Source: Candidatus Woesearchaeota archaeon (GTDB lineage: Archaea; Nanobdellota; Nanobdellia; Woesearchaeales; GW2011-AR9). From it: 41,130 bases of DNA. Of this stretch, positions 12,224 to 35,913 are shown one piece after another. Where the stretch lies: positions 4,611 to 45,740 of the forward strand of contig DUGB01000001.1 of NCBI GenBank assembly GCA_013331555.1, given 5' to 3'. Within the stretch, counting starts at the first letter, position 1; each line of letters begins with the position of its first letter. The notes under the pieces are model-generated. The model had not been told where the DNA came from. It saw only the letters and a program-made list of their open reading frames with translations, and ran no database searches. Position numbers and translations under genes: made by a program.

Positions 12224-12457
12224 ATGACAACAAAAACACTCACCATTACCGAAGATGCCTATGAACGGCTGTCAAAATACAAAAGTGCCCACGATAGCTT
12301 CAGTGATGTGATTATAAAGCATTTCCCTAAACATTCTCTTCTCGAATTGGTTGGGAGACTTACAACTAAAGAAGCAGAAGGACTGCGAAAACACGTAAAA
12401 GAGAGAAGGAGAGAATCACAAGAAAGAATGAGTGAGACAGCAAGGAGATTGCAATGA
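12224..12457 (+). CDS. vapB: VapB-type antitoxin (archaeal DUF217/UPF0330-like)
   Basis: 77 aa, KTLTITEDAYERLSKYK...SFSDVI N-terminus. A 4-nt ATGA overlap joins it to the downstream PIN gene. Confidence 0.7.
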   Translation: MTTKTLTITEDAYERLSKYKSAHDSFSDVIIKHFPKHSLLELVGRLTTKEAEGLRKHVKERRRESQERMSETARRLQ

Positions 12458-12846
12458 TCCTTGATACAAGCTTTGTTATAGACCTTATGAATAATCATCC
12501 CGAAGCAGTTTTGAAGGCACGTGAGCTCCAACAAAAAGGAGAACATACGTATATCTGTACACCAACGTTATTTGAACTATGGAGTGGCCTAGCACAAAGT
12601 AACAAACCAGTAAAAGAAAAGCAGAAAATAATGGAGATCATTTCTTCTCAGTTGGTACTCAATTTTGACAAAGAGAGTGCAGAAGAAGCTGGAAAAATAG
12701 ACGGCCTATTGAAATGTGAAGGGCAAATGATCGATCCCGAGGATAGCATGATTGCGGGGATTGCAAAACGCCATGGAGAGTGTGTCTTAACGAAGAATGT
12801 AAAACATTTTAGTCGGATAAAAACTATTTCTTGTGCAACATATTGA
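12454..12846 (+). CDS. vapC: VapC PIN-domain ribonuclease toxin
   Basis: 130 aa. MILDTSFVIDLM carries the first acidic residue, with further acidic residues in ...ELW... and ...IDPEDSMIAG.... Confidence 0.85.
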   Translation: MILDTSFVIDLMNNHPEAVLKARELQQKGEHTYICTPTLFELWSGLAQSNKPVKEKQKIMEIISSQLVLNFDKESAEEAGKIDGLLKCEGQMIDPEDSMIAGIAKRHGECVLTKNVKHFSRIKTISCATY

Positions 12847-19274: not shown

Positions 19275-20969
19275 TTACGCTTTCTGTTCGGCAGCAGCGC
19301 GATTTAATTCGCGGAAAGCGTTCTCGACATCGTCGTGGTTCCAGCCAGTATTTTGAGTAATTAATTGTTTAATCTCTTCATCCGTAGCGCCAACTTCTTT
19401 TTCTTTGCGAACCCATTGAACAAGATCATCAAAGTTATACGCCCGTGCTTGTGGTTTGATAGTATGGGCAACGACAAGAGCAACAATGATACTTAATAAC
19501 AAGACGCTGAATCCAGCAATAAAGTACACTTTGTAATTATTCCAAAGAGCGTCAAATGTGGATGCGGATTGTGGTTGTTGAACGATGGGAGGACGAGGCT
19601 GCCCTTGCAAAGGAGGAATTTGAGACGTGATGCGGACTGGTTCAGGACCTGGAACAACACTTGCTCCACAGGAATTGCTTATTACTGGTTTTCTGCCCGT
19701 AGTTCCACATTGATGCTCATCATAACATACTCTCGTTTCTTGACCGTTCTGGCAAGACTGCCAATCAGTGCAAATCCATGACTCCTGACACGGTTGACAG
19801 GTTCTGTTTTCTGTATACGTATTTGCGGTGTAAGGGCTTTTGCAGTTGTTCTGATCGGTACAACTGCGTTGCTGCTGAAGATTTTCATTACAGAATGTCC
19901 AGGAAGTACAGGTGATATTTGAGATACATCTCCATCCACTGCCACCACCGGAGCTTCCGGAACTACTAGAACCTGGGTCGAGAACTACTTGATCACATAC
20001 ATCGCCAAGGTTATCACCATCGGTGTTTTCTTGAAGAGGGTTAGGGACAGCAGGACAGTTATCTTGACCATCAGGAACACCGTCGCCATCCTGATCTTGA
20101 GCAGGAGGAAGATCACCGACACATTGACCTAGAACACATTCTTGGGTTGGTTGGCAAACATTATTACAAATACCACAATGAAATAAATCTGTTTGAAGAT
20201 CAAACTCCTCATCAATAGTGGTATCACAATCATTGTCTAGACCATCACACACTTCAAAACCTGGAGCAACGGCATTTTGACAATCTCCCCATGTTGCATC
20301 CTGCTGACAGACTTGCTGGCCTTCTTGGCATATTCCTTCATTAAAACCGCAGGCTTGTTGTTGACCAGAGGTACAAGGAAGAATTTCGATCGTAAACGTG
20401 TAATCCTCAGGAAAAAGATCATTACCTGTTTGAAGGTCATAGATAGAAGGGCGAATGAGAACATCAAATTCTTGGACAAGTAGAGCTTCAACGAAAGTTA
20501 GTTCGGCAATAGTGAACGTACCTGTTTTAAAATCTTGATCACTGAGAGTAGCATCGGCAATTGTAAGTACATTATTTTGACAAGAGATTTCTTCAAACTC
20601 GCCCCACAATTGGACTTGACGCTGAGCGGCACACAAATCAACTTGCGGATTTTGAGAGATTAATTCTATGTAAACACCATTCGTAGAAATACCCTGCTGA
20701 AGTGTTGCGGTCAGAACAAGTTTATTCCCTAACAAGCTAAGGTCAAATTCCTGACCGCTAGGAGCAGTATAAATTGCTTTTCCCACAAACTGTGAGACAA
20801 TAAACAAAAGAAGAGCAAGAACAACAACTAAGCCGAGAGAAATAAGAGTAATGATAAATGTTTTATTTGCTTCGCCGGCAGAATTATAAATTTTAGGGGG
20901 TGGGTGAGCGTGCGGTCTATAACGAACGTTTACATTCTTGTGATGTTGTTTTGCGCCACGACCATTCAT
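19275..20969 (-). CDS. Surface-operon protein G: bitopic Cys-rich protein (N-terminal anchor/signal, TSP type-3 repeat, W/C-rich repeats, C-terminal TM, cytoplasmic tail)
   Basis: TM 36-60 followed by FVGKAI. CDGLDNDCDTTIDEE (aa 241-255). DQDGDGVPDGQDNCPAVPNPLQENTDGDNLGDVCD (aa 291-326). Two CxSW/DWxxC...QxRxC units (aa 346-421). Second TM aa 481-504. Confidence 0.75.
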   Translation of the reverse strand: MNGRGAKQHHKNVNVRYRPHAHPPPKIYNSAGEANKTFIITLISLGLVVVLALLLFIVSQFVGKAIYTAPSGQEFDLSLLGNKLVLTATLQQGISTNGVYIELISQNPQVDLCAAQRQVQLWGEFEEISCQNNVLTIADATLSDQDFKTGTFTIAELTFVEALLVQEFDVLIRPSIYDLQTGNDLFPEDYTFTIEILPCTSGQQQACGFNEGICQEGQQVCQQDATWGDCQNAVAPGFEVCDGLDNDCDTTIDEEFDLQTDLFHCGICNNVCQPTQECVLGQCVGDLPPAQDQDGDGVPDGQDNCPAVPNPLQENTDGDNLGDVCDQVVLDPGSSSSGSSGGGSGWRCISNITCTSWTFCNENLQQQRSCTDQNNCKSPYTANTYTENRTCQPCQESWICTDWQSCQNGQETRVCYDEHQCGTTGRKPVISNSCGASVVPGPEPVRITSQIPPLQGQPRPPIVQQPQSASTFDALWNNYKVYFIAGFSVLLLSIIVALVVAHTIKPQARAYNFDDLVQWVRKEKEVGATDEEIKQLITQNTGWNHDDVENAFRELNRAAAEQKA

Positions 20970-20981
20970 TGATAAACCTCT

Positions 20982-21950
20982 TTATTGAGCTGATTCAAGG
21001 AAGAACTCCCGCAAGGCCCGACCGACTGCGGTAACAAGCTTGATTTTTGTGTCTCCATTAATTTTGTTATCTTGATACTGGATTAATGGCTGACCAGCTA
21101 GACAATATTCGGGAAATCCATGATCAGGACGATAACACAGGCCGTTAATAAGAGCAGTAACGCGATTAATTAAGATTTGTTTGGCGGGGAGTTTTGTACA
21201 GATACTACTTCGAGCACCGAAGTTAGTATTGGTGCAGGTGTAATCAATATCGACATATTTGCAATCTTCTGAACAGCCATCACGATTAGCACGATAGCCA
21301 TCGTCTTCAGTACTTCCATCTGCTGCACCAGTATCACACGCTTCATTTTGTTCGCCATCATCTTTAATGCCATTTTGATTTACATCGAGATACCCTACAA
21401 CACTATCACCGCAGATGGAAAGTTGGGGAACAACAGCGATACTCGGAACAGAAGCAACACCATCGATAGCAGATCCAGTCGCAGGAGTAAAGAAATTTTG
21501 GGGATCAGCTACGGCTACAAGATCAAATAGTACTCCTTGAACATCATTTTCGTTTATTCCTTGAAATTTTACATTATTAATGGTAAATAAAGATTGGGGA
21601 GCAACGCTACTCCATTCCTCTCCACTTCTTCCATGCCAACTTGTAAACAAACGGTAAGCCAGATTATTTTGGAAACGTCCAGTGAATTGATCGTTCTGAG
21701 TAAAGCGATCAGTTTTAGTATGACTTGCTTGACTAAAAAGAGGAAGTGCCGGGTTCGTGCTCATCGTTAAACTGTATTCAATCACTTTGACATCATGAGT
21801 GTTGACATTGACATTAACCGAAAAAGGAACGTCGTAGACGACTGGTTGAGGAACTGAGAAACCAACGTCAACATTCTCTGCAAACACAGAAGGCAAAGAC
21901 AGACAAAAAATACTGATTAATAGGAATAAGATTAAATGTTGTGTTTTCAT
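20982..21950 (-). CDS. Surface-operon protein F: secreted protein with Myxococcus-type cysteine-rich repeat
   Basis: The start was set at the ATG at 21950 (MKTQHLILFLLISIFCLSLPSVFA signal peptide), overlapping the stop of gene E (ATGA). Repeat: CGDSVVGYLDVNQNGIKDDGEQNEACD...DGCSEDC. Paralog of 23204-24133. Confidence 0.75.
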   Translation of the reverse strand: MKTQHLILFLLISIFCLSLPSVFAENVDVGFSVPQPVVYDVPFSVNVNVNTHDVKVIEYSLTMSTNPALPLFSQASHTKTDRFTQNDQFTGRFQNNLAYRLFTSWHGRSGEEWSSVAPQSLFTINNVKFQGINENDVQGVLFDLVAVADPQNFFTPATGSAIDGVASVPSIAVVPQLSICGDSVVGYLDVNQNGIKDDGEQNEACDTGAADGSTEDDGYRANRDGCSEDCKYVDIDYTCTNTNFGARSSICTKLPAKQILINRVTALINGLCYRPDHGFPEYCLAGQPLIQYQDNKINGDTKIKLVTAVGRALREFFLESAQ

Positions 21951-23182
21951 TGTGCTCCCTCCATTACGTAGGGACAATTTTCATGGTTAAATGTGTATGT
22001 CAACGTACCAAAGCCGTACAGTATATTCTCTCCCACAACCCGATAAGAAGAGTCGTCGCAAACATAAAATTTGTTGCTATTATAAGAGCAAGGAAGCTGG
22101 TTTGCTTCACCACACGTCACAGTGTTGATAGAATCACGTGTTTTGTAGACGATATCAGCGTCTTGTCCATCATACTTTTGATCTCCATTAAGATCAGCAT
22201 TGAATATTACACTACCTTGAGCATCACAAAGTCCAGGAATCACATTACACAACTGACGGCAGTCATCATTCCCTTGACAGAATTGAGTTACACCAGCGAT
22301 GTCAACTGGAGGACATTCCCCTCCATCATTAGGACATTCATCACGAGTGATAAATCCAAAATCCGTTTTACATTGCTCGGCAGTACATTGAACAGGTGGT
22401 TGTTGTTCTTGCTCGCAACCATCATTAAGATTATTGTTTGCATCTTTCCATTCCGCGTCACAAACACAAGCAAGATTAGTTAACAAGGCATGATCCCCAC
22501 ACGCTGTTTGATCGCAAACATCACCAAATGAATCTCCATCTTGATTAGCTTGATCCGGATTAGAAAGTACTTGACAATTATCAACAACATCAAATATACC
22601 ATCACTATCGACATCTTTTGCGGGTGCTCCACCGACAACAGAAAGAGCTATATCTTCAGGCAGAGCAGAGATGATATTTCTTTTATTAGAATATACGCTC
22701 ATGGCATCAAAATGAAAACTGACTTCCTCAACACTTGGAACTGTGAATTGAATCACAGCAAGTTCAACTCGACCAGGACCAGAAGGAGGAGTACTCGCAA
22801 GGTTTAGAATCCCCGCATCGAGCACCAACTTTGTATCCATACAATAGGTTCTTTGAATATCATACACGGGCGGAATAACAACATCAACGCTTGGTTCCCC
22901 ACCATGACACAGTTCTATTACTGGTGAAGATAATGCAACAAGAAAACTTTCTGCTCGTTCTCTTTCCTCCAAAAGAACAGTAATAGAAACTTTTCCAAGG
23001 GCATCAACTTTCAACTCTTGAGATGCGGAAATACCAGCAATGGCTTTACCAACAAATGGACGACCAAGAAATAGAGATAGTATTAATACCACCACCATTA
23101 CAAGAACTACTACACTAATAATAGCTACCTGGCGACGACGCTGTGGATCAACTGGAGCCGTTTCGAAACGTGTATTTACCAT
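21947..23182 (-). CDS. Surface-operon protein E: N-terminally anchored protein with TSP type-3 repeat and dockerin-like plus 4-Cys module
   Basis: TM 20-40 followed by FVGKAI. DVDSDGIFDVVDNCQVLSNPDQANQDGDSFGDVCD (aa 190-224). DLNGDQKYDGQDADIV...CGEANQLPCSYNSNKFYVCDDSSY (aa 329-380). Paralog of 24135-25133. Confidence 0.75.
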   Translation of the reverse strand: MVNTRFETAPVDPQRRRQVAIISVVVLVMVVVLILSLFLGRPFVGKAIAGISASQELKVDALGKVSITVLLEERERAESFLVALSSPVIELCHGGEPSVDVVIPPVYDIQRTYCMDTKLVLDAGILNLASTPPSGPGRVELAVIQFTVPSVEEVSFHFDAMSVYSNKRNIISALPEDIALSVVGGAPAKDVDSDGIFDVVDNCQVLSNPDQANQDGDSFGDVCDQTACGDHALLTNLACVCDAEWKDANNNLNDGCEQEQQPPVQCTAEQCKTDFGFITRDECPNDGGECPPVDIAGVTQFCQGNDDCRQLCNVIPGLCDAQGSVIFNADLNGDQKYDGQDADIVYKTRDSINTVTCGEANQLPCSYNSNKFYVCDDSSYRVVGENILYGFGTLTYTFNHENCPYVMEGAQ

Positions 23183-23203
23183 CTATTTTTCACACACTTT
23201 TTT

Positions 23204-24133
23204 TTAATTTATTTCGTAATATTCGAGGAGTACTTCTCTCAACAATGGTACTTGCCGAGCAATGCTTTTTTCTGTGACGCAAAAACCACCATTTTCAAAA
23301 GTGATAGCGTCAGGATGCCCAACATAAGGAAAACAGGAAGGTTTTTGATCGCTAACATCAGCAGGAATGTTGAAAATAGCATTAAGCTTAGCAAGCAAAC
23401 GGTCTTGTGCTAACAGTGGTTGAAGAGTACAATCTCGTGAACCAAAATCACAAGCGAATTTAGAAGCTAAACTGGTTTGCCCTTGAATTTTATGAGTTGA
23501 TTTGATATAACGACAGTCAGCGGAACAACCATCTCCACCAAGAAGCGCAGGATCACAGGCTTCATTATTTTCAGATGATTGCTTAATCCCATCTTGGTTT
23601 GAATCAACATATCCAACAACCCCATCACCGCAGAGAGAAAGCTGAGGTATAACAACCGTGCTATCTTGACTTGTAATCGTAAAATCAACGCCAGATTGAG
23701 CAGCAGTCAACATCTTCTGGGGAACACTACGAAGAATGAATGTGAACCCACCATCTAAAGTCCCCGAAACACGAACGTTACTCAATGTTAAAAGATTACT
23801 AGGAGCAGCTGTTGCCAGAGTGTTTCCATTCGTTTCTGTCCTGACACGATAATACAAACCATTCTCTTGAGGACCTGAAAGACCTCCAACCAATTGAAAT
23901 TGATCGACCCGTTGAACTCCTGGCGAGAATAACGCTTTTCCGTTATTGGTACCAACAGAAAGGTCATAATCAATGAACGAAACACCATGTGAATTTACGT
24001 GTAGTTGCACGGGAAATGGTACATCGTACACAATTTTTTCAGGGATGGAAAACGTAAAGTCTGCGTCAGCAGCTATTGCTAGCGGAGCAAAAAATAATAA
24101 CAATAATGGTATGATTAAGAGTTTCTGGTTCAT
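23204..24133 (-). CDS. Surface-operon protein D: secreted protein with Myxococcus-type cysteine-rich repeat
   Basis: The start was set at the ATG at 24133 (MNQKLLIIPLLLLFFAPLAIA signal peptide). Repeat: CGDGVVGYVDSNQDGIKQSSENNEACDPALLGGDGCSADC. The N-domain FSIPEKIVYDVPFPVQLHVNSHGVSFIDYDL resembles gene F. Confidence 0.75.
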   Translation of the reverse strand: MNQKLLIIPLLLLFFAPLAIAADADFTFSIPEKIVYDVPFPVQLHVNSHGVSFIDYDLSVGTNNGKALFSPGVQRVDQFQLVGGLSGPQENGLYYRVRTETNGNTLATAAPSNLLTLSNVRVSGTLDGGFTFILRSVPQKMLTAAQSGVDFTITSQDSTVVIPQLSLCGDGVVGYVDSNQDGIKQSSENNEACDPALLGGDGCSADCRYIKSTHKIQGQTSLASKFACDFGSRDCTLQPLLAQDRLLAKLNAIFNIPADVSDQKPSCFPYVGHPDAITFENGGFCVTEKSIARQVPLLREVLLEYYEIN

Positions 24134-24134
24134 C

Positions 24135-25133
24135 TTACTGTCCTCCACCAATATATGCTGCGGTATCCTGATAAGGGCAGGAATGAGCACCATCAAAGAT
24201 ATATCCTTTGTAACCATCAACACGGAAAGAACTATCATCACAGGTTCTTGTACCTGCAAAATTACAAGGTGCTAAGTTAATATTACCACACTCTTCACGA
24301 ACTTTTGCTTCTGCTATTTTGAGGATGATAAACGCATCTTGACCATCAACTTTAGCATCACCATTGATATCAACAGTATACCCGAAACGACTTCCTACAT
24401 CAGTACAGAGCGCAGTTTTTTGAGGAACAGTTAACTTTTGATTAAGACCTGCCTGATCTAATGATCCTAGCCAGCTTTGACAAAGAGTTTCTTGATTTGT
24501 ATCAAACCAGGGCTGACAGGTAGCATCATTAGCCTGACAACTTACTTGCTCCGCAATAGGATTTTTAATGAACTGAATAAGATTAGCATGCGGAGGATTA
24601 AGATTAGGAATTGTAAAGACTACAAATTGAATCTGTCGTAGTTGATCTTCAGTAGGAATACTACCCCCTACTACTGTAAAAGGAATTGAAGCAATAGCAA
24701 TATCTGACCCAGTGATAATTCTGGCCGGGTCTAACGTCGCATGATGAAATAAAAGTTTATTACCACTGATCTCTCGACGAAGATAGGCGGTTTGATCGTC
24801 AGTAAACGGAAGCTGAAGTTGAATTTCACTTGGATTAACACTAAACGCAGAAGGAAATTCTAACTCAAAGTAAACCTCTGACGCTTGAGCAGTACCAAGA
24901 TGAGCAGCGACGGGAAAAAGAAACTGGCTTCCTTGCTGCAAATCAGAGAGTTGCCCACGAAATCCAGCAGTTCCAGAAACTCCTTGCTCTTGAGTAAAAA
25001 ATGCTTGCCCTGCGGAACGAAAACCAACAAAGTACACGATCACAATCAGAAGGACAACCAAAACAATGCCAACTAAGGCAATGACGGCAGGCCGTGCTTG
25101 GGCCTTCATTTTTTTAGGGAGTGCGGAAGCCAT
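24135..25133 (-). CDS. Surface-operon protein C: N-terminally anchored protein with dockerin-like plus 4-Cys module
   Basis: TM 16-37 followed by SAGQAF. DINGDAKVDGQDAFIILKIAEAKVREECGNINLAPCNFAGTRTCDDSSF (aa 255-303). Confidence 0.75.
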   Translation of the reverse strand: MASALPKKMKAQARPAVIALVGIVLVVLLIVIVYFVGFRSAGQAFFTQEQGVSGTAGFRGQLSDLQQGSQFLFPVAAHLGTAQASEVYFELEFPSAFSVNPSEIQLQLPFTDDQTAYLRREISGNKLLFHHATLDPARIITGSDIAIASIPFTVVGGSIPTEDQLRQIQFVVFTIPNLNPPHANLIQFIKNPIAEQVSCQANDATCQPWFDTNQETLCQSWLGSLDQAGLNQKLTVPQKTALCTDVGSRFGYTVDINGDAKVDGQDAFIILKIAEAKVREECGNINLAPCNFAGTRTCDDSSFRVDGYKGYIFDGAHSCPYQDTAAYIGGGQ

Positions 25134-25137
25134 GGGT

Positions 25138-26109
25138 TTATTGGACAGACCATAATGAACGGATAATTGACATTAAGCGTGTTAAAAATCCAACGGGAGG
25201 TGCTGATGAACTATCAATTGCACCCTGATTTTCTGCTACCGCAGCTTGAATCTGTTGGTTGAGCTGTTGTGATTTTGTTGGTGCGGCAGTTAGTTGACAG
25301 ACATTATTAACAAGTACTTCACCGTCTGGACAAGATTGTTGAGTAGTTTGACATGTATTGGCAACATTACATACTTGACCATCAGGACAACCAGTAGCAG
25401 GAACAACAGTATTTCCAGGACAAGCAACGCCACCGACACAAGCGGTGGCGGGAACAGAAGTACAAGGCACTTCGGTTGCTACACAAACATTATCAGTATT
25501 ACAACTCTGACCAGTAGGACAACCGATTGGAGCGACAACAGTATTCCCAGGACAAGCCACGCCACCGACACAAGCGGTAGCGAGAACAGAAATACAAGGA
25601 GCTTCAACTGTAACTGAAAGAGCGGTAGCAGATAATTGAAAGATAGGGGTTTTGTCTGTATCTCTCTGACTAAAGAGTCTATTAACAACGCTTCGAGAAG
25701 TATCTATCATAATACTATCAGACGTGGTTGCGACTCCTCTAAGAACAAAGACTTGTTTATCCGTTGTGCTTAGTTTAGGATCACTATCTGTTCCCGTAGG
25801 AATTTTAAAGTGCCAAACTGCACCATTCTCTTCGGCTTGATTTGGTAATGGAGTTCGAGAGGGGAACCAATGATCAGAACCAGTACGCTGACCATTACTA
25901 AAAACAACATTACCATTTTGACTTTTGACATAAAAATCAAAATTTTGAACACGTTGATTTTTTGAATCCAAAGAGATTGTCATCTCAAATAGAGTGTTAG
26001 CTTGAATTGAAGCTGAACCAGTAATTTTAACATCAACCGGATCAAGAGCGAGAGAAAATGTTGAAAGTAAAACGAGCAGAGACACAAAAATAAATAATAT
26101 CTTTTTCAT
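25138..26109 (-). CDS. Surface-operon protein B: secreted protein with two 44-aa Cys-rich tandem repeats
   Basis: Signal peptide MKKILFIFVSLLVLLSTFSLA. Strong SD aggagg upstream. Repeats PC(I/T)SV.ATACVGGVACPGNTVV...GCP.GQ.CN...C at aa 171-258, also visible as a DNA repeat of about 132 nt. Confidence 0.75.
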   Translation of the reverse strand: MKKILFIFVSLLVLLSTFSLALDPVDVKITGSASIQANTLFEMTISLDSKNQRVQNFDFYVKSQNGNVVFSNGQRTGSDHWFPSRTPLPNQAEENGAVWHFKIPTGTDSDPKLSTTDKQVFVLRGVATTSDSIMIDTSRSVVNRLFSQRDTDKTPIFQLSATALSVTVEAPCISVLATACVGGVACPGNTVVAPIGCPTGQSCNTDNVCVATEVPCTSVPATACVGGVACPGNTVVPATGCPDGQVCNVANTCQTTQQSCPDGEVLVNNVCQLTAAPTKSQQLNQQIQAAVAENQGAIDSSSAPPVGFLTRLMSIIRSLWSVQ

Positions 26110-26123
26110 CTTTTTTTTCCTCC

Positions 26124-28685
26124 TTAACAGGTAAAACTGTCGAAATCGTAGACACCACTATCGCAGGCATAGGTGTCTCCATAGGAACATGTTTGTTGGC
26201 CTGCTCCGCCACAATTAGAATTGCTTTGAGCCAAGATGGCATATTGTAAAGCCAGCACATCAGCATCAGTAACAACCCCATCATTATTAACATCTGCACT
26301 TGCGGGTAATGTTCCTTCACACATAAAGCTTTCGAAATCGTAGACACTATCATCACACGCGAATGTATCCCCATAAGAACAAGTTTCCTGACTGGCTCCG
26401 CCACAATTAGAATTGCCTTGAGCTAAGATTGCGTATTGTAAAGCTAGCACATCAGCATCACTTACAGAACTATCACTATTAATATCACCAGTTCCAGTTG
26501 ATGGCGCTGCACCTTCCCAGCTTCCCGCAGTACATTGATATTGAGCAGTATTATCTTGAGTTTGGTCAGCAGTACAACTTGGAGTTTGGGGATCTTTATT
26601 ACACTGCGTCGCAGAACAACAACGTTTTTGTCCATTTGTTCCCGGAATTGTATCTTTACAACTTAAACCAGTGCGACAGTCGCTGTCTTGTGTGCAAGTC
26701 CATGATTCTCTTGCTTTCCAAGATCCTGCTTCACACCAAAATTTCGCGTACAGAGGATCTGGCTGAGCTGGAAATATATTTGCTCCGCCATCTTGACAAT
26801 AAATTGTGGCATTGACATTATATTTTATACCAGAGCCAGTACATTCTTCAATAGGACAACAGCGTTTTGGATACGTTACAGGATCACTTCCTGGAATGTA
26901 GCTTTCACAAGCCAGATTATCAGTGTCGTCTTTACAATCAGATGTTTCTTGACATACGCCGCCTTTGCTCACTGTTCCTGTTCCTCTCTGTTCCCATTGA
27001 CCTTCACGACAGATGAAATTAGTAGTAAAAGTATAATCTCGATCACAATCTGAATTCTCTGAACCATCCCAATTACACAGAGCATTACTAGAGCAACACA
27101 ATTTTTGACCATTGGAATCTGGAGCAGGGTCTTTACACGTTAATCCGACACCACAATCTGCCGTAATATCACACTCTGAATTCAAAGGTTGTGGGTTTGA
27201 TGCCCATTGACCAGCTTGGCAGATGTACCGTTTATATTCAGGAGTATTAATAGATATGCCATCAGCAACACAGCCGACGACTTGAGCACTAGCTTCGTGA
27301 GCATTACATTCATTTGGGAGACAACACTTCAACGTGTTTGGTTCATTATCAGTATCGGTTGGTGGAACAGACTTACAGAATAAACCAAGGGCACAATTAG
27401 AATCTGTGGGAAAATCAGAATAACGTTCACATTGTCCCCCATTTTGTTGAACTGCTCCAACGATGGGTCGCCAGACACCAATTCTGTCAACAACACGACA
27501 AACTTTTGTTTGATCATCATTTTGTGTACCTGCTGCAACACACTTGCCTTCTGCAGAACCATCATTACACCAGTTTTCCGGACAGCACAAACTTGCATCA
27601 CTTTCATCAGAAACGTGGCAATAACCATTATAATCGTACTCTTCTCCATTAGGAAGTTGGAGTCTATCATCTGCACATTGGCCCGCAGCAGTGCAAGGCA
27701 GATTATAGCGAACAGAGACACAAGCGCTTTCTTCATCTACCTCACTATCACAATCATTATCTTGTTGGTCGCAAATTTCTGTGGAAGGTATGCACGCAGG
27801 AACGACCCATTCCCCTGATTGACAAATCCTGTTATTAAGATCATTAACAGTTCCTTCTGCAACACATTCATTACCGCCAGGACCATCATTACATTTGTTC
27901 GCAGGACAGCATAATTTTTGATCAGGCACTGTTTGGTCAATAGTATGATCATCAGTAGATTTACAGATCAAACCAGAACTGCAAAAACCAGTAGAAGTAC
28001 AAGCTTGATTTTCTTTAGGGCACGCGATATCCTCATCAACTTTTCCGTCGCAATCATTATCTCGTTGATCACAGATCTCAGTAGAAGGAGTACAGGAAGT
28101 CGCAGAAACACACATCTTTGTAGACGCACATGAAGTACCAGCGACACAATCGGCGCTCTTTACACACAACCCTTCATTAGCATTACATAATTCACCAGTA
28201 AGACCTTTTTTGAATGTACAATAACTGGTATAACCGTTACATTTTTCGACAACTTTAGTAAGTTGAGTTCGAGGGAAACATACTTTTTCAACACAGACAT
28301 TGCCAGCAGCAACACAAGCTGTTGGAAGTCCTTTACCTGGAGGGACACAAGAAAGAGTTAATCTAGCTTGAATGAGAGAGTTCATAGAGATTGGACATTC
28401 ATTGTTAACACAACGACCGACTTTTGTTTCACACACTAAACTTAAAAGAGAATTAGATTGAGTTGAACTAGTACAGACTTGCCCTGCAAAAGAACATTTC
28501 GCTGCCGTCGCTTGCCCGGCAAGCGTTTTTCCGGAAGAAGCAACATAGATGATGACTAAAACAAGAATAACAGCAAGACCAAGACCAATTCCCATCCAGA
28601 GTTTATGTTTGTCGAAGGAAGGTTTTGAAGACGAAGAAGAGAGGACATTCTGACGAGAAGACTGTTTAGAGGCTTTTTTTTTCAT
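26124..28685 (-). CDS. Surface-operon protein A: 853-aa N-terminally anchored Cys-rich protein (six Cys modules, two CDxxDNDCD motifs, two dockerin-like plus 4-Cys modules)
   Basis: TM 30-50 followed by TLAGQAT. ICDQRDNDCDGKVDEDIAC and ICDQQDNDCDSEVDEESAC. Six units ending (K/R/L)CC....C(N/T)...C...(I/V/W/Q)C..G.W. C-terminal DINSDSSVSDADVLALQYAIL and DVNNDGVVTDADVLALQYAIL. Confidence 0.8.
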   Translation of the reverse strand: MKKKASKQSSRQNVLSSSSSKPSFDKHKLWMGIGLGLAVILVLVIIYVASSGKTLAGQATAAKCSFAGQVCTSSTQSNSLLSLVCETKVGRCVNNECPISMNSLIQARLTLSCVPPGKGLPTACVAAGNVCVEKVCFPRTQLTKVVEKCNGYTSYCTFKKGLTGELCNANEGLCVKSADCVAGTSCASTKMCVSATSCTPSTEICDQRDNDCDGKVDEDIACPKENQACTSTGFCSSGLICKSTDDHTIDQTVPDQKLCCPANKCNDGPGGNECVAEGTVNDLNNRICQSGEWVVPACIPSTEICDQQDNDCDSEVDEESACVSVRYNLPCTAAGQCADDRLQLPNGEEYDYNGYCHVSDESDASLCCPENWCNDGSAEGKCVAAGTQNDDQTKVCRVVDRIGVWRPIVGAVQQNGGQCERYSDFPTDSNCALGLFCKSVPPTDTDNEPNTLKCCLPNECNAHEASAQVVGCVADGISINTPEYKRYICQAGQWASNPQPLNSECDITADCGVGLTCKDPAPDSNGQKLCCSSNALCNWDGSENSDCDRDYTFTTNFICREGQWEQRGTGTVSKGGVCQETSDCKDDTDNLACESYIPGSDPVTYPKRCCPIEECTGSGIKYNVNATIYCQDGGANIFPAQPDPLYAKFWCEAGSWKARESWTCTQDSDCRTGLSCKDTIPGTNGQKRCCSATQCNKDPQTPSCTADQTQDNTAQYQCTAGSWEGAAPSTGTGDINSDSSVSDADVLALQYAILAQGNSNCGGASQETCSYGDTFACDDSVYDFESFMCEGTLPASADVNNDGVVTDADVLALQYAILAQSNSNCGGAGQQTCSYGDTYACDSGVYDFDSFTC

Positions 28686-28725
28686 ACATCACACCTACTT
28701 TTTAGGTATTGCTAATTTTCTTTCC

Positions 28726-28734
28726 TTTATATAG
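28726..28734 (-). promoter_or_regulatory. TATA box of the surface operon
   Basis: ctatataaa on the minus strand, 41 nt upstream of the ATG at 28685. SD aggtg sits in the short leader. Confidence 0.5.
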
Positions 28735-28774
28735 TTTTTGTTTTTGATTTCCGTCGAGAAAGAGAAGAAAAATA

Positions 28775-29015
28775 CGCCGAGGCTGGGACTTTCAGGCCAC
28801 CTTTCTTTACACTACATTTGGTGCAGCTCACAAAATAAAGCATCCGGCTTCATTTGTGCGCCAAAGTGATTGTTATCACTTTGTGCGTTGTAAAAGATGA
28901 CTTTTGAACCCAGATACCCTTGCGGGAACTAGCTTACGTTCCAGGCAAAATAATTTTTTGAAATATTTTGCGGATGATAGCAGGCTAGCGCACTACCAGA
29001 TTATGCGACCTCGGC
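28775..29015 (-). tRNA. tRNA-Ser(GCU) with two introns (43 nt at or near 37/38, 28935-28977; 114 nt in the T-loop at about 59/60, 28789-28902)
   Basis: Hand-folded cloverleaf: acceptor GCCGAGG/CCUCGGC (7 Watson-Crick bp), U8, D arm GCAU-AAUCUGGUA-GUGC, anticodon stem CUAGC/GCUAG, loop CUGCUA(A), long variable arm UUCCCGCAAGGGUAU (GCAA loop), T stem CUGGG/CCCAG with UUCAAA|U, and G73. Exon plus intron lengths sum exactly to 241 nt. A TATA box lies 26 nt upstream and a T-run downstream. Confidence 0.85.
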
Positions 29016-29654: not shown

Positions 29655-31076
29655 TTAGTTGCCAAGCCTGGAAAGATTCGAATAAATTTTACGATGTTTG
29701 CCCTTGCTTCGTTCAAAAGTAACAGTAGCGCGAGGCAAACTAAATGTTCCAAGAATATGCAATTTTGCTTTTACTTTATAGGTGATAAGACGATGCTCTT
29801 GGGCGTCAATCTCGGCCAGCGACCAAATCACTTTCGTGCCGTGAGCAGTGTTGTGAACTTGTTCTGGTTTTAATGTTCCTAATTCCAAGCTTTTTTCAAC
29901 ATTGGCAATAGTTGGAACAAGATCAGTTACTTTAACATGCTTAACAGCTTTCTTAGACTTGTTCCGGAGTTCAAGAGTAATTTTAATTTCAGAAAGGCCG
30001 CCTTCCATACTTTTAGCAGTAGTGGCAGTTTTTCGTATTTCCAACGGAGAGCGCAGATAAAGATAGGCAATCAGAATAACCATGACGATAAGCAGAAGAT
30101 ACAAGGCAAGACGATAATTAGTTACGAAATAAATTGTTGTTTCTTCACCTGGACCAAGAGACACATCCCACACAAGATGACGTTGGTTGTCTTGCATTAC
30201 AATTTTGCCGCCACCGCTGCTTAATATAGCGGCAGTTAATGTTAATGGGACTTCAACTTCCTGAGTGTTGCGAACATTACCGGGATTAAGAACACGCAAA
30301 GAGTTTATGTTTTTAAGAAAGACACTGTCAGTGGTTAATGTTGTTACAAATGGAGGAAGCAAGGGAAGAACTTCAATTTTTTTCTCGAGAACTTTAACCG
30401 TCTGACCATTCTGCTCAAAGACGAAAAAGAGAACAGATTCTTTGGGCTGCTGATATTTATTGGGAATGATTGTAAACTCAATGGTTTTGCGTTCCAATGG
30501 AGGAACATCAACAACCGTTTCCTGAACAAATTCAGGAATATCACTTTGAATCTTAACGGTGAGATCAGAAAGATTTAATGGATTTTTATTCTCAAGAAAG
30601 AGCTTGATGGAGAGAGACTGTCGAGGATCAATTTTATCATTCATGTCCAGCGTTGCTTTTAATGAGGGAAGATAACGAGAAAGACGTTCAGAACCGAGAT
30701 ATACTTTAAGTGATTCAGAATACCGTTCACCAAGATCACTTTCGACGGAAATCTGAACATAATAAATTCCTGGCTGAAAGTTATCCAGAGGACGAGCAAC
30801 AATTTTGGTCGAGCGGCTTTCACCAGCAGCCAACTCAATTATTTTATCACGAAGAGGAGAAGGGTCGACAGACCAGCCTTGACCGCTTTGTAAGGAATAA
30901 GTGCTGTAGCGCTGAGTTTGATGAGCATTGTTAGTGATAGTCAGTTGAAAGGATGCTTCTTCACCAAGAGTGATCTGATTTTTAATGGGAGTAACTTCAA
31001 TATTGGAAGCAGCGATGACAGCAGTAGAACACAACGTTAGGAGAACAACTAATGATAGGAATATCTGCCACCTCAT
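29655..31076 (-). CDS. Exported Ig-like (CARDB/DUF11-like) repeat protein with an internal TM helix
   Basis: Signal peptide MRWQIFLSLVVLLTLCSTAVIAA. Repeated beta-sandwich-like segments (e.g. ...GEEASFQLTITNN...). TM LALYLLLIVMVILIAYLYL, followed by a further beta-rich domain. Confidence 0.6.
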   Translation of the reverse strand: MRWQIFLSLVVLLTLCSTAVIAASNIEVTPIKNQITLGEEASFQLTITNNAHQTQRYSTYSLQSGQGWSVDPSPLRDKIIELAAGESRSTKIVARPLDNFQPGIYYVQISVESDLGERYSESLKVYLGSERLSRYLPSLKATLDMNDKIDPRQSLSIKLFLENKNPLNLSDLTVKIQSDIPEFVQETVVDVPPLERKTIEFTIIPNKYQQPKESVLFFVFEQNGQTVKVLEKKIEVLPLLPPFVTTLTTDSVFLKNINSLRVLNPGNVRNTQEVEVPLTLTAAILSSGGGKIVMQDNQRHLVWDVSLGPGEETTIYFVTNYRLALYLLLIVMVILIAYLYLRSPLEIRKTATTAKSMEGGLSEIKITLELRNKSKKAVKHVKVTDLVPTIANVEKSLELGTLKPEQVHNTAHGTKVIWSLAEIDAQEHRLITYKVKAKLHILGTFSLPRATVTFERSKGKHRKIYSNLSRLGN

Positions 31077-31787
31077 GGAGGTTATTTTATTTTTTCCTTG
31101 TATTTAAAGCCTTCGTTTTCGGAAAGAATGAAATGAGCCACTGGACAAGCTTGGGTGAAGCTTATAAAGCAAATGTTCTTTCAAATGGATATGGAGAAGG
31201 AGAGAGCATTGGCTGTATTTCAAGATAAAAGAATAAGAAGAGTTTGGCATAACAACGAATGGTATTTCTCTGTGGTGGATGTAGTTGAAGCACTAACTGA
31301 TAGCCCTGCTCCAAGACAATACTGGGGCGTTTTAAAAGGAAGAGAAAAACAGTTGTTAACACTTTGTTTACAACTGAAATTGCTTTCGGCTGATGGCAAG
31401 AACTATGCCACAGATTGTGCTAATACGAAGAATATATTCAGAATTATTCAGTCCATTCCTTCTCCTAAAGCAGAACCATTTAAACAATGGCTGGCTCAAG
31501 TGGGTTATGAGAGAATTCAAGAAATTGAAAATCCAGAACTTGCCCAAAATCGGGTCAAAGAATATTATGAACTAAAAGGTTATCCGAAAGATTGGATAGA
31601 TAAAAGATTAAGGGGAGTCGTAATTAGGCAAGAGCTTACAGACGAATGGAGAGATCGGGGAGTTGTCGATGAAACAGATTTTGCTATTCTGACTAATGAA
31701 ATCACCAAAGCAACATTTGGAAAAACAGTTGGAGAATACCGAGAATTCAAAAGATTAACAAAGCCTAGCCAGAATCTGAGAGACCAT

Positions 31788-31846
31788 ATCCTGAGAAATT
31801 CAGGGAATTTCTGGGATGCCAAAAATCACAGAGGTGATTTTTCAGC
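31788..31846 (+). repeat. 59-nt double-hairpin insertion 1
   Basis: Hairpins agaaattc-agg-gaatttct (31794-31812) and aaaaatcac-agag-gtgattttt (31821-31842). The ends are also mutually complementary (ctgagaaatt / gatttttcag). Boundary ambiguity is 2 nt (AT). Confidence 0.7.
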
Positions 31847-31876
31847 ATGACTGATTGGGAACTTATTTTTACTATG

Positions 31877-32232: not shown

Positions 32233-32802
32233 ATGGTAGATGGATTTCGAGGAGTGGTTACTTTTTTGGACACGATCGGGGTTTATGATATTGTTCTTCC
32301 ATTTTTATTAATATTTACCATTGTATTTGCCGTCCTCGACAAGACTAAGATTTTAGGTGTCGATAAGATTGATAATCGAGAATTATCAAAGAAGAATCTG
32401 AATTCGATGGTTGCGTTTGTGATGGCGTTGATTGTCATTGCATCGGCGCAATTAGTAAGGCAGATCAGCAGAATTATGGCGGATGTGGCATTGCTGCTGG
32501 TGTTGGCAATTTGCTTTTTAATGTTAGTCGGTGTGTTTTTTAAAGACGAGCAGTTTGATATTGAGAAAATTAAAGGATGGAAAGCAGTACTAGTAACGCT
32601 GATGTTCGCCGGGATTGTGATTATTTTTTTGAATGCGCTTGGATGGTTGGATTTTGTGTTCAAGCTGATTAAAAATTTCAACGCCGATTGGGCAGCAACA
32701 ACTTTATTTTTATTGATTACGGGAGGGTTTATGTACTATGTTGTACGATCTCCAAGTCCATCAGTTCCTGCAGGTGGAGAAAGTCCAAAAAAAGGAGGAT
32801 AA
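32233..32802 (+). CDS. Five-TM membrane protein, paralog 1 of 3
   Basis: 189 aa. The conserved first TM motif is VYDIVLPFLLIFTIVFAVLDKTKILG. SD gaggt upstream. Confidence 0.65.
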   Translation: MVDGFRGVVTFLDTIGVYDIVLPFLLIFTIVFAVLDKTKILGVDKIDNRELSKKNLNSMVAFVMALIVIASAQLVRQISRIMADVALLLVLAICFLMLVGVFFKDEQFDIEKIKGWKAVLVTLMFAGIVIIFLNALGWLDFVFKLIKNFNADWAATTLFLLITGGFMYYVVRSPSPSVPAGGESPKKGG

Positions 32803-32805
32803 ACA

Positions 32806-33423
32806 ATGGTCAACTATCAAGATTTAATTTATTATTTCCAGCAGTACGGCGTATTGGATTTTCTCCTGCCGTTTATTTTGGTGTTTACAGTTATCTTTGC
32901 AGTGTTGCAGAAGATAAAACCGTTTGGAAATGATGGGAAAAATTTCCATGTCATTATTGCATTTGTCTGTGGTTTATTATTTGTTGTTCCACATGTTCTC
33001 GGAACGTATCCACCAAGTTATGATCCGGTTGTGATTTTAAATAATGCTTTACCTGGCGTATCATTAATTGCCATTTTTGCAATTATGGCGTTAATTACGT
33101 TAGGCGTCTTTAACACAGAAATGGGAAATACTCTCTTACCAATTGTTGCTTTTGGATCTTTTGCGTTTGTGGCATACATCTTTGGTTCGTCACTCGGACT
33201 TTGGAGCGGACCTTATGACCTTTTCTCGTGGTGGACAGCAGATGTAACGGAATTACTGGTGATTATCGCTGTCTTTGGTGGAATAGTATATTTCATTACG
33301 AGAGAGGATAGTGACACTGAGAAAGATCCAGCAAAATTGGCAGCGGCCAAGAAGAAAGCTGATGAAAAATGGGAAGATTATAACAAAAGGCTAGGCAACA
33401 TTATTAAAAGAAGAGGAGACTAA
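32806..33423 (+). CDS. Five-TM membrane protein, paralog 2 of 3
   Basis: 205 aa, VLDFLLPFILVFTVIFAVLQKIKPFG. 3-nt spacer from paralog 1. Lys/Glu-rich C-terminal tail. Confidence 0.65.
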   Translation: MVNYQDLIYYFQQYGVLDFLLPFILVFTVIFAVLQKIKPFGNDGKNFHVIIAFVCGLLFVVPHVLGTYPPSYDPVVILNNALPGVSLIAIFAIMALITLGVFNTEMGNTLLPIVAFGSFAFVAYIFGSSLGLWSGPYDLFSWWTADVTELLVIIAVFGGIVYFITREDSDTEKDPAKLAAAKKKADEKWEDYNKRLGNIIKRRGD

Positions 33424-33440
33424 ATATTTCAGTTTAACCC

Positions 33441-33995
33441 ATGGCAACTGTCTTAGATATCGGTGGACTATTTCAAGCGTTTGATTTTGTTTTTCCATTC
33501 CTTTTTGTAACGGTTTTAGTTTTGGCAGTGTTACAAAAAACAAAAGCAATCTCCGAAAGCGCAGCAATTAATGGAATTTTGGGTGTAATCTGTGGATTTA
33601 TGATTATACTTTCCAGAACATTAATTGATTTGATTAATTTTATGATTCCCTGGTTTACGGTGGCAATTGTGTTCATCGTATTGATGTTTTTGATTTTCTC
33701 GTTATTTGGTGCGAAGGAAGCCAACTTCTTAGAAGCGTTGAAAGCTAACGATAAAACCGTTATCTGGGTCATTGTCGGCGTCGGCATTGTTATCCTTGTC
33801 GCAGGGTTAGGAAAAGTGTTAGGACAGAATATTGGTCCGTATTTAGCAAACGAAACTGGAATCACAGATGGTTCGGGTGTAGCGACAGGTAGTTTTGAAC
33901 AGAATGTAACCGCAACACTTTTTCATCCTAAAGTATTGGGGTTGTTAGTCCTCTTTGGAATAGCGATTTTTGCGGTACTGTTGCTGACGAGTTGA
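33441..33995 (+). CDS. Five-TM membrane protein, paralog 3 of 3
   Basis: 184 aa, AFDFVFPFLFVTVLVLAVLQKTKAIS. Confidence 0.65.
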   Translation: MATVLDIGGLFQAFDFVFPFLFVTVLVLAVLQKTKAISESAAINGILGVICGFMIILSRTLIDLINFMIPWFTVAIVFIVLMFLIFSLFGAKEANFLEALKANDKTVIWVIVGVGIVILVAGLGKVLGQNIGPYLANETGITDGSGVATGSFEQNVTATLFHPKVLGLLVLFGIAIFAVLLLTS

Positions 33996-34200: not shown

Positions 34201-34494
34201 ATGCCAGAAATACTTCATCACAAAACGGAACACAAACATATCCTACACTATCCCCAGTTGGATACGGTACTGATGGTTGAAAAATTTATTTATGATCATA
34301 GCGGAGAATTCAAAAAAAAATCTCTTTGGGAACACTTGCCTAAACAAATGATGTATCAAACATTTTGCGTTATTATTGACTACCTTTTGGAATCAGGAAA
34401 AATAGCGGTGGATAGTGAAGGAAAGATAGCGTGGGTTTGGGATCCTGAAGGAGTGAAACGATACTTAGCGAGGAAGGATCTCACGTGGAACTGA
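34201..34494 (+). CDS. Small protein, possible winged-helix antitoxin partner
   Basis: 97 aa. Overlaps the downstream RelE-like gene by 10 nt. No strong motif. Confidence 0.4.
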   Translation: MPEILHHKTEHKHILHYPQLDTVLMVEKFIYDHSGEFKKKSLWEHLPKQMMYQTFCVIIDYLLESGKIAVDSEGKIAWVWDPEGVKRYLARKDLTWN

Positions 34495-34823
34495 ATTCAG
34501 AAGTAAGGTTTGGTGATGAGAATCTTAAGAAAGCTTATCACGAATTGGAAGCCGGCAAGTTTGAAGATAAACAACTCAAAGAGTGGTTAGACAGAGCAGT
34601 TCAAGATTTAAAGAAAAATGCTTTTTCGGGAATTCAAATTCCAAAAAGACTCATCCCAAAAGAATATCACGCTAGATATGGTCCACTAACTAACGCTTGG
34701 AAGTATAACTTGCCTAATGCTTGGAGATTGATTTACACAATCAAAAGAGATGAAGTAGTAGTTTTAAGTGTTGTTCTGGAATGGATGTCACATAAAGAAT
34801 ATGAAAGACGATTTGGATACTGA
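34485..34823 (+). CDS. RelE/ParE-superfamily toxin-like protein
   Basis: 112 aa with a GTG start. The C-terminal signature NAWKYNLPNAWRLIYTIKRDEVVVLSVVLEWMSHKEYERRFGY resembles the RelE/ParE core (W-R-x-I-Y ... H-K-x-Y). Confidence 0.5.
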   Translation: MELNSEVRFGDENLKKAYHELEAGKFEDKQLKEWLDRAVQDLKKNAFSGIQIPKRLIPKEYHARYGPLTNAWKYNLPNAWRLIYTIKRDEVVVLSVVLEWMSHKEYERRFGY

Positions 34824-34887: not shown

Positions 34888-35454
34888 TTACTTCTTCCTC
34901 ATTCCTTGCGTCACAGACGATAACTCTTTCACGTTCTCAACGAAGGTTGGAATGACATCTTTAAACACTTTGCCGACGGCTTTTAATTCCGTGCCGACAT
35001 CACGCATTCGATTATCGTAATCTTCAAGCTTTCCTAAAACACCTTGATGAAGAATCTTAAAATCGTCTTTTAATTTATCTACATCATGACGCAAAGTACT
35101 GACGGTCTCTTCCATTTTTGTTTTCCATTCAATGATCTTTTTGACTTCGATGATCAGCTGATCCCATTTTTCATCAATGATGCTTTCAGCAATCTCTTCA
35201 ATCCGCCCAGTGAGATCTTCCGTTTGTGGAGGAGGAGCGTACGCGGGAGGTGCTTGAGGGGGATAGTTTTGGGGATAAGAAGATCCATATTCTTGTGGAG
35301 CGTCATATTGCGTCAGCGACATCTGCACTTGATCTTGCGGATAACCTCGTTTAACTAATTCGGCAAGTATCATGGAATCACTCAATCCTTGGTTACGAAG
35401 AAGCTGAATATCTGCAGTAAGACGATTTTGATCCATCGGGGCCATAGTATTCAC
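34888..35454 (-). CDS. Coiled-coil protein with small N-terminal helical domain and Pro/Gln-rich linker
   Basis: 188 aa. IQLLRNQGLSDSMILAELVKRGYPQDQVQMSL, then YPQNYPPQAPPAYAPPPQ, then heptad-like EEIAESIIDEKWDQLIIEVKKIIEWKTKMEETVSTLRHDVDKLKDDF. Confidence 0.6.
   Translation of the reverse strand: MNTMAPMDQNRLTADIQLLRNQGLSDSMILAELVKRGYPQDQVQMSLTQYDAPQEYGSSYPQNYPPQAPPAYAPPPQTEDLTGRIEEIAESIIDEKWDQLIIEVKKIIEWKTKMEETVSTLRHDVDKLKDDFKILHQGVLGKLEDYDNRMRDVGTELKAVGKVFKDVIPTFVENVKELSSVTQGMRKK
34890..34954. repeat. Direct repeat, right copy (functional 3' end of gene 34888-35454)
   Basis: See the left copy. This copy encodes IPTFVENVKELSSVTQGMRKK-stop. Confidence 0.8.
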
Positions 35455-35484
35455 CTGTTTTTGAGTGGAAGTGCTTTTTCCAGC

Positions 35485-35913
35485 TTAATAAATGTTTTCT
35501 GTGTTAGAGGATGCCGGAGGAGTGTTTATGGTAGAGTCAGAGGATTGAAGTTGAGCGAGACGTGCATCAATAGTGCGCTCTAAATCACGCTGGGTGACAA
35601 AATGAAGCGGATTCCAAAAGTCAAGATATTTTTTTAATGTGGCTAATTCTTCGGCTCCGGCAGTACGACGAAGCTCTTTAATGATTAAATCCATTTTTTG
35701 CTGGGTTTGTTCACGTTCATGTTTTAATTCCAGCACATCACTACGGATGCTTTTGAGTTCTTTATTAAAGTCAGTATTTTTCCGGAGGTGGTCGTTCTTC
35801 AGAAGATTAACTTCACGCAACAGAGTGTTAACTTTACTTTCCAGACCTTTAACCCAGACGTAGAGTTGAGCACTGTCATAGGATTGAGTTGTGGAAGTCA
35901 TAGGCTCGGCCAT
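35485..35913 (-). CDS. Coiled-coil protein, hypothetical
   Basis: 142 aa, heptad-rich (LESKVNTLLREVNLLKNDHLRKNTDFNKELKSIRSDVLELKHEREQTQQKMDLIIKELRR). Confidence 0.6.
   Translation of the reverse strand: MAEPMTSTTQSYDSAQLYVWVKGLESKVNTLLREVNLLKNDHLRKNTDFNKELKSIRSDVLELKHEREQTQQKMDLIIKELRRTAGAEELATLKKYLDFWNPLHFVTQRDLERTIDARLAQLQSSDSTINTPPASSNTENIY

Follow-up and report, generated by a model that had tools for sequence, protein, structure and literature searches.

What do seven adjoining genes that specify exported, modular, cysteine-rich proteins do at the surface of an archaeon? The question is raised by a 41,130-nucleotide (nt) stretch of contig DUGB01000001.1 (assembly GCA_013331555.1, Candidatus Woesearchaeota archaeon), here called the window, in which seven minus-strand open reading frames (ORFs), A to G in that order, span positions 19275-28685. 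A first-pass annotation had put them forward as a candidate for an undescribed kind of surface attachment or assembly system. The feature that unites the modules of the operon is the cohesin fold. Six of the proteins (B, C, D, E, F, and G) each have a single domain of the cohesin fold or cohesin family, and these domains fall into two sequence classes: B, D, and F are secreted, and in C, E, and G the domain follows an N-terminal transmembrane (TM) helix. With slightly better than even confidence, resting on sequence and structure models, we propose that the operon encodes a non-cellulosomal assembly of the cohesin-dockerin type on the surface of this woesearchaeotal (DPANN) archaeon.

The fold was assigned from a structure model of D. 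An AlphaFold2 model calculated from an alignment of 13 relatives and the paralog F has a mean predicted local distance difference test (pLDDT) score of 85 and a predicted template-modeling (pTM) score of 0.77, with block-mean pLDDT values of 89-97 over amino acids (aa) 21-155. When this model was compared with the PDB by Foldseek, most of the 15 best matches were cohesins (E-values 9e-6 to 1e-4, target template-modeling score up to 0.70), among them those of Clostridium perfringens NagJ and GH33, C. thermocellum OlpC, Ruminococcus flavefaciens ScaE and ScaB, and C. acetobutylicum CohA2. F is 35% identical to D over the whole length (E-value 3.5e-46), and as a paralog of D it is taken to have the same cohesin-fold N-domain and Cys-rich and helical C-terminal region; the N-domain of B is found by the D-family hidden Markov model (HMM) at an E-value of 1.5e-7. 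The D-family profile retrieved nothing from PDB sequences, and a fold search of viral structures with D gave unnamed or generic beta-sandwich matches only. The archaeal fusexin Fsx1, which appears at ranks 21 and 22 of the D fold matches, was rejected for its poor superposition (template-modeling score 0.14-0.20, root mean square deviation 14 Å).

The second class was assigned largely through its families. None of the seven window proteins matches Pfam Cohesin (PF00963) at an E-value up to 1; 13 of the 19 members of the C family, which was collected through the C-terminal module, do so at an E-value up to 0.1 (best, 9.7e-6), and the best PDB matches of the C-family profile are the C. perfringens NagJ cohesins (E-value 0.003). 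By hhalign, the N-region of the C family is homologous to that of the G family (probability 98.4%, E-value 9e-15), and protein E is matched by the G-family HMM at an E-value of 1e-15. The G model, with block-mean pLDDT values of 61-80 in its N-domain, has the non-cellulosomal cohesin 2xdh of Archaeoglobus fulgidus as its second-best fold match, among other beta sandwiches. The N-terminal beta-rich domains that had earlier been put forward as partners of the dockerin-like modules have in this way turned out to be cohesin folds.

The main rival explanation is that the proteins are independent surface adhesins or spacers that arose by tandem duplication and share generic Ig-like stalk domains and a structural EF-hand, serving adhesion, matrix binding, or envelope decoration without any cohesin-dockerin binding. 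The paralogy inside the cluster (D with F, C with E, and E with G) agrees with it, as does the fact that the G model also matches generic beta sandwiches of adhesins (collagen-binding domains, pilins, and Als3). It accounts less well for the fold matches of D, which are specifically to cohesins, and for the members of the C family that match the Pfam Cohesin model itself.

The candidate counterpart of the cohesins is a module found twice in A and once each in C and E, in which a canonical 12-residue Ca loop leads into a helix and then into a segment with four invariant Cys. Every loop has the canonical D1, N3, D5, and D12; the loops read DVNNDGVVTDAD, DINGDAKVDGQD, and DLNGDQKYDGQD. All 19 PDB matches of the module profile are dockerins. 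The PDB and Pfam alignments use only positions 2-26 of the profile, which align to either F-hand of a canonical dockerin, and each module is therefore one F-hand with a Cys-rich extension rather than a duplicated dockerin. Two tandem F-hands within a module of ~60-70 aa occur in none of these proteins: those of C and E are single, and the two in A lie 64 aa apart, each with its own four-Cys segment. The dockerin-like loops read by eye in the first-pass annotation are thus real, but they do not make canonical dockerins, and of the three proteins only A is recognized by the Pfam model Dockerin_1 (PF00404; 30.7 bits in two stretches, cutoff 22.9), with protein E under the cutoff at 12.2 bits and C without a match. 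The single F-hand is again what would be expected of independent adhesins with a structural EF-hand; the invariably C-terminal position of the module, the usual place of dockerins, is not. A search of 1.84 billion representative proteins with the module gave 168 matches at an E-value up to 1e-3. Of those among the 150 matches listed that reach the Cys part, 43 were retrieved, and in these the module lies at the extreme C-terminus, single or doubled; the remaining matches comprise the Ca loop only, in multi-repeat proteins. Full modules number about 45 among the matches listed. A metagenome scan for C-type genes found two loci only, one of them already known.

The two kinds of domain are encoded side by side. 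In 10 of 10 gene pairs, the gene immediately downstream of an anchored, module-bearing one encodes a cohesin-fold protein with a signal peptide, a count that covers six loci (the window, L004/L005, L001, L007, L002, and L010; Table 1) and includes the variant modules of the 536-aa protein of L001. The subtype of the module tracks that of its downstream partner (A-B, C-D, and E-F), and the two-TM G-type gene is the last in the cluster. Synteny in related archaeal contigs, proposed earlier as a check, was thus recovered, and the gene order goes beyond chance because it is repeated in independent contigs. Orthologs are 24-48% identical, compared to 71% for the neighboring S6e, a divergence typical of fast-evolving surface proteins. 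Alternation of anchored and secreted proteins that has stayed strict despite such divergence is difficult to reconcile with independent adhesins, an explanation we consider unlikely. In L002 (927-6039 and 6092-7576; also L003 and L006), the E-like 550-aa and G-like 855-aa proteins carry inserted phosphatidylethanolamine-binding protein (PBP, PF01161) domains, and a GGDEF-domain gene comes after the cluster; different cargo is therefore possible on the same scaffold, which suggests that the cargo is exchangeable.

The same comparisons bear on the idea that the products are structural parts of the envelope, for example of a lattice or sheath associated with the S-layer, that serve cell integrity rather than contact and in which any cohesin-dockerin contacts would amount to self-assembly of the wall. 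A lattice of this kind would be at home in a housekeeping neighborhood (in three lineages the genes downstream include S6e and one for an OB-fold protein), would suit a G protein anchored at both ends, and would be expected to have the many disulfides and Ca sites that are predicted here, as rigid extracellular lattices do. The families are, however, very rare. A search of 5.8 billion proteins turned up only 13 clusters of the D/F family, and together with the small number of full modules this is too patchy a distribution for an essential part of the wall of the lineage. The divergence of the orthologs is also more typical of interaction surfaces, and we regard an envelope lattice as improbable.

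All seven products appear to be exported, as had been proposed from the first reading. In A, C, E, and G a basic N-region leads into a strongly hydrophobic helix, and the classical Sec signal peptides of B, D, and F end in sequences such as AIA/AD and VFA/EN. The single TM helix assigned earlier to A, C, E, and G is correct for the first three only, since G has a second one at aa 483-501 and then a cytoplasmic tail of ~60 aa. Most likely G crosses the membrane twice, so that both of its ends lie inside and a loop of ~425 aa lies outside. The cytoplasmic N-region of its family is invariant at P19, H20, G32, and E33, and the tail is conserved too; neither the tail nor the W/Cys repeats of G match a Pfam family. 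A likeness by eye between the tail and the window protein at 34888-35454 was rejected when comparison found no similarity, and the gene call for G in the public protein database is only 313 aa long (P0016, 55% of the ORF). A juxtamembrane motif, hydrophobic-G-[KQRH]-A-[IVF], lies right after the N-terminal helix in A (aa 53-59), C (aa 41-45), E (aa 45-49), and G (aa 62-66). In the form G-[KQRH]-[AGV] it is invariant in the C and G families and lies just past the N-terminal hydrophobic segment in 34 of the 36 retrieved module proteins that have such a segment. Signal peptidase could cut here, or the motif could serve as a sorting or processing signal specific to the lineage.

Much of the remaining extracellular sequence consists of repeats, and the names first given to them stand in part. 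Thrombospondin (TSP) type-3 repeats had been read in E and G; G passes the TSP_3 cutoff (PF02412; 26.5 bits, cutoff 25), and E falls just below it (24.1 bits, aa 189-211). The CDxxDNDCD motifs reported twice in A and once in G score 28.1 bits, in two stretches, and 20.2 bits, respectively, with the MopE model (PF11617, cutoff 27). The Myxococcus-type repeats of D and F are sub-threshold in D (TIGR02232; 12.7 bits, cutoff 20.8) and without a match in F itself, but 6 of the 14 members of the D/F family match at an E-value up to 1 (best, 5.5e-9). A search with full-length E returned TSP3-repeat matches only and no full-length relative. TSP3 and Cys-rich repeats occur widely among unrelated surface proteins of bacteria, which fits independent adhesins as well. 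Identity with the myxobacterial cell-cohesion proteins MtsC and TraB was ruled out by scores far under the family cutoffs (NF047638, 18-32 bits against 350; NF033763, 9 bits against 700) that cover only the TSP3 repeats. The above-cutoff Cu-binding_MopE match of A and the Ca-binding TSP_3 repeats of G and E raise a further alternative, extracellular handling of metal by binding or sequestration of Cu or Ca. We find this highly improbable: PF11617 is described only as a "putative metal-binding motif" of ~17 residues, such motifs make up a small share of the proteins, and the operon has no transporter, oxidase, or chaperone. Indeed, scans of the seven proteins against Pfam and NCBIfam found no catalytic or transporter domain, in keeping with the original description of an operon free of enzymes and transporters.

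In the cohesin-dockerin-type assembly that we favor, the N-terminal helix would hold A, C, and E in the membrane, so that the dockerin-like module points outward at the opposite end, and in the presence of Ca2+ each would capture the secreted cohesin protein of the next gene (A-B, C-D, and E-F). Further cross-links would be possible through the cohesins in C, E, and G and through the second A module, giving a hetero-oligomeric surface structure that G, by spanning the membrane twice and with its conserved cytoplasmic ends, would hold down. The outward Cys-rich, TSP3, MopE, and Myxococcus-type repeats would be rigid, Ca-stabilized adhesive or spacer elements. Module-cohesin binding, the three pairings, and anchoring by G are predictions, and contact with a host or partner cell is a plausible role for this lineage. 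A more specific form of the proposal, in which the module is a hitherto unrecognized minimal dockerin (one F-hand and two disulfides) that binds a divergent secreted cohesin encoded next to it downstream, and the three orthogonal pairs and the two-TM anchor, whose conserved cytoplasmic ends could couple to the cell interior, make up a dedicated host-attachment structure in Woesearchaeota, seems to us rather doubtful.

Several points weigh against this assembly, and the chief weakness is the module. Canonical dockerins need two F-hands, and a module with a single one may therefore not bind cohesins, which leaves such binding putative. On the cohesin side, none of the 14 members of the D/F family matches Pfam Cohesin, and the two classes cannot be joined by sequence because hhalign finds no similarity of the D family to either the G or the C family. 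The cohesin fold is moreover a common beta sandwich (integrin, BslA, and carbohydrate-binding module [CBM] domains appear lower in the D fold matches), and the G model is weak, with a mean pLDDT of 57. The conserved adjacency of the genes could be merely inherited synteny. Last, signal peptidase may cut at the juxtamembrane G-K/Q-A site; in that case A, C, and E would be set free instead of staying in the membrane, the topology would be altered, and G would be the sole anchor of the complex.

Table 1. Features of the seven-gene cluster in the window and protein lengths of the related clusters.
Feature	Position	Strand	Description
TATA-box-like ctatataaa	28726..28734	-	~40 nt upstream of the A start
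Gene A	26124..28685	-	853 aa, 80 Cys; basic N-region and TM aa 31-49, juxtamembrane GKTLAGQA; two MopE-type CDxxDNDCD motifs (aa 202-218 and about 302-318); six Cys-rich repeats of ~75-100 aa, each with a CC pair and GxW (aa about 222-725); two C-terminal dockerin-like modules
A module 1	26319..26489 (aa 733-789)	-	One dockerin-type Ca loop and helix, then four Cys
A module 2	26127..26297 (aa 797-853)	-	Architecture of module 1, 75% identical; best Dockerin_1 stretch aa 797-818
Gene B	25138..26109	-	323 aa; Sec signal peptide, D/F-family cohesin-fold N-domain, two six-Cys repeats of 44 aa, C-terminal amphipathic helix
Gene C	24135..25133	-	332 aa; TM aa 17-35, AGQA motif, cohesin domain aa about 45-195, C-terminal dockerin-like module
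C module	24171-24380 (aa 252-321)	-	Dockerin-like, C-terminal
Gene D	23204..24133	-	309 aa; signal peptide, cohesin-fold beta sandwich aa 21-155, Myxococcus-type Cys-rich acidic repeat aa about 166-210 (sub-threshold), C-terminal Cys and helical region
Gene E	21947..23182	-	411 aa; TM aa 21-39, VGKAI, C/G-class cohesin-like domain, TSP type-3 repeat, dockerin-like module
E module	21968-22204 (aa 327-405)	-	Dockerin-like, C-terminal
Gene F	20982..21950	-	322 aa; signal peptide, D paralog; start overlaps E stop (ATGA)
Gene G	19275..20969	-	564 aa; TM1 aa 39-57, VGKAI, cohesin-like domain aa 65-195, MopE motif aa 237-254, TSP_3 aa 285-313, Gly/Ser linker, two W/Cys repeats aa 346-435, Pro-rich linker, TM2 aa 483-501 (19467-19523), three-helix cytoplasmic tail aa 505-564 (19278-19457)
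L004/L005			893, 263, 353, 313, 412, 325, 485 aa; all seven in window order; S6e downstream in L004
L002/L003/L006			296, 550, 297, 855 aa; then OB-fold gene and S6e in L002, as downstream of G in the window
L001			536, 333, 77, 323, 337, 626 aa
L007			356, 294, 435, 332, 497 aa
L010			(partial), 338, 632 aa

The layout of the seven genes is that of a single archaeal transcription unit, and the conserved cluster is probably one operon. The intergenic spacers from A to G are 14, 4, 1, 21, -4 (the E/F overlap), and 12 nt, none of the six contains an oligo-T run, and a T-rich tract lies 3' of the G stop, at a distance of 3 nt from which a convergent gene comes to its end. ORF coordinates and spacers bear out the first-pass description of tightly packed genes on one strand with an ATGA overlap, and its single TATA box and Shine-Dalgarno (SD) sites are likewise supported, by the TATA-like element and by GGAGG-type SD sequences upstream of B, D, and F. 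The putative operon promoter is confined to 28686-28774, because a tRNA gene ends at 28775. In the mechanical ORF list D and F start at upstream TTG codons; we adopted the ATG starts and take them as real because they align with the N-termini of all relatives and are preceded by SD-like sequences. A scan for sigma-70 promoters and intrinsic terminators, models that are not relevant to archaea, gave counts close to the shuffled expectation. Within the window, the module and both cohesin classes are confined to the operon.

The tRNA gene, a minus-strand tRNA-Ser(GCU) at 28775-29015 between sepF and gene A, has two introns, one of ~43 nt at the canonical 37/38 site and one of ~114 nt in the T-loop (around 59/60). 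In its unspliced form it is missed by ARAGORN and Rfam; with both introns removed in silico, ARAGORN calls an 82-87 nt class II tRNA-Ser(gct). Farther upstream, past the tRNA gene and sepF and some 1 kb from the operon, 29655-31076 (minus strand) encodes an exported 473-aa surface protein that is unrelated to the operon families; it has a signal peptide, Ig-like domains of the DUF11 and NPCBM_assoc (NEW3) types, and a TM helix at ~aa 334-350. At 32233-33995 (plus strand) are three adjoining genes for paralogous multi-TM proteins of 184-205 aa that have the N-terminal motif ~D-x-[ILV]-[LF]-P-F-L and no Pfam match; ~2 kb past them, and preceded by genes for two coiled-coil proteins (34888-35913, minus strand), is the gene for a 769-aa secretion or pilus ATPase of the T2SSE type (36012-38321, plus strand). 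This region may be a pilus- or archaellum-like export locus. Also present on the plus strand are genes for a Bro-N domain protein (31155-31850) and a PIN-domain protein (12454-12846) and two small overlapping ORFs (34201-34823) that form a putative toxin-antitoxin-like pair. Bro-N domains are common in phages and viruses, and these genes are possible mobile or defense-type elements among housekeeping genes. The housekeeping genes are archaeal (ProRS, FtsZ, S6e, SepF, Elp3-like, and archaeosine TGT), and FtsZ falls in a 90%-identity cluster with proteins of Candidatus Woesearchaeota, Nanoarchaeota, or Nanoarchaeia archaeon. The reduced genome supposed in the first-pass annotation is a premise drawn only from this assignment to Woesearchaeota.

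We know of no cultured isolate of Woesearchaeota and of no molecule that has been shown to mediate their contacts. The operon offers a small set of contact candidates, three anchored-plus-secreted pairs and an anchor, that can be tested recombinantly. It also suggests that standard domain models miss two things, a cohesin class visible only by structure and a one-F-hand, Cys-stabilized dockerin-like module. Binding of the pairs, if it occurs, would widen the range of designs known for cohesin-dockerin interactions, and orthogonal minimal pairs could serve protein assembly; the biological reach may be limited to a few lineages, since the families are rare. Most Woesearchaeota are predicted to depend on partner cells (PMC8421398). 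Terms for adhesion, attachment, cell surface, pili, and S-layer were looked for in that comparative genomic study of the phylum and do not occur there, and our literature search found no paper linking cohesin-dockerin systems to Woesearchaeota or DPANN.

Non-cellulosomal cohesin-dockerin pairs are already known in archaea (Peer et al. 2009, Bayer et al. 1999, and Haimovitz et al. 2008, as cited in PMC9012536), and functional archaeal pairs, proposed cell-cell roles, and systems of anaerobic methanotrophic archaea (ANME) are described in PMC9012536 itself. The operon is therefore not a new category, and the idea of a wholly undescribed kind of system has to be given up. Like the operon, the A. 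fulgidus cohesin (2xdh) and dockerin are archaeal, have no link to cellulose degradation, and involve single cohesins rather than multi-cohesin scaffoldins. In A. fulgidus, cohesin and dockerin can share one polypeptide, as in C and E here. The operon differs in its unit of one F-hand and four Cys, in the alternating anchored and secreted pairs of a conserved seven-gene operon, and in the B/D/F cohesin class, which is undetectable by sequence. The toxin-complex cohesins of C. perfringens (NagJ/GH84C and GH33; 2jh2, 2w1n, 2o4e, and 2vo8), which give the best fold matches of D and the best profile matches of the C family, are likewise non-cellulosomal and assemble secreted proteins into complexes, but they join glycoside hydrolases, whereas the operon has no enzymes and belongs to an archaeon.

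With cellulosome scaffoldins and their type I and III pairs (OlpC 4dh2, ScaE 2zf9, and CaCohA2 6kgc) the operon shares the cohesin fold, a C-terminal Ca loop plus helix, and a surface-anchored complex. It lacks catalytic subunits, a CBM, an S-layer homology (SLH) or sortase anchor, and a multi-cohesin scaffoldin; anchoring is by TM helices, and the dockerin-like unit is not duplicated. A cellulosome was ruled out, as no product has catalytic or CBM domains and each has at most one cohesin-like domain. The cohesin- and dockerin-rich proteins of ANME described in PMC9012536 are also archaeal and extracellular, with a proposed role in assembly or cell-cell contact and a partner-dependent lifestyle. 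According to that description they are found by standard domain models, some are scaffoldin-like, with up to five cohesins, and their dockerins are on substrate-binding proteins; the operon, in contrast, is from a DPANN lineage, most of its modules escape standard models, and its cargo consists of Cys-rich repeat domains only. Myxococcus surface proteins (MtsC, TraA/TraB, and the TIGR02232 repeat proteins) share the TSP type-3 repeat, the MopE-type motif, and, below the cutoff in D, the Cys-rich acidic repeat with the operon, which has no MYXO-CTERM, PA14, or TraA architecture, and the likeness is at the level of repeats only. Set beside these systems, what is new here is the alternation of anchored and secreted operon pairs, a cohesin class visible only by structure, the module of one F-hand and four Cys, and the occurrence in Woesearchaeota.

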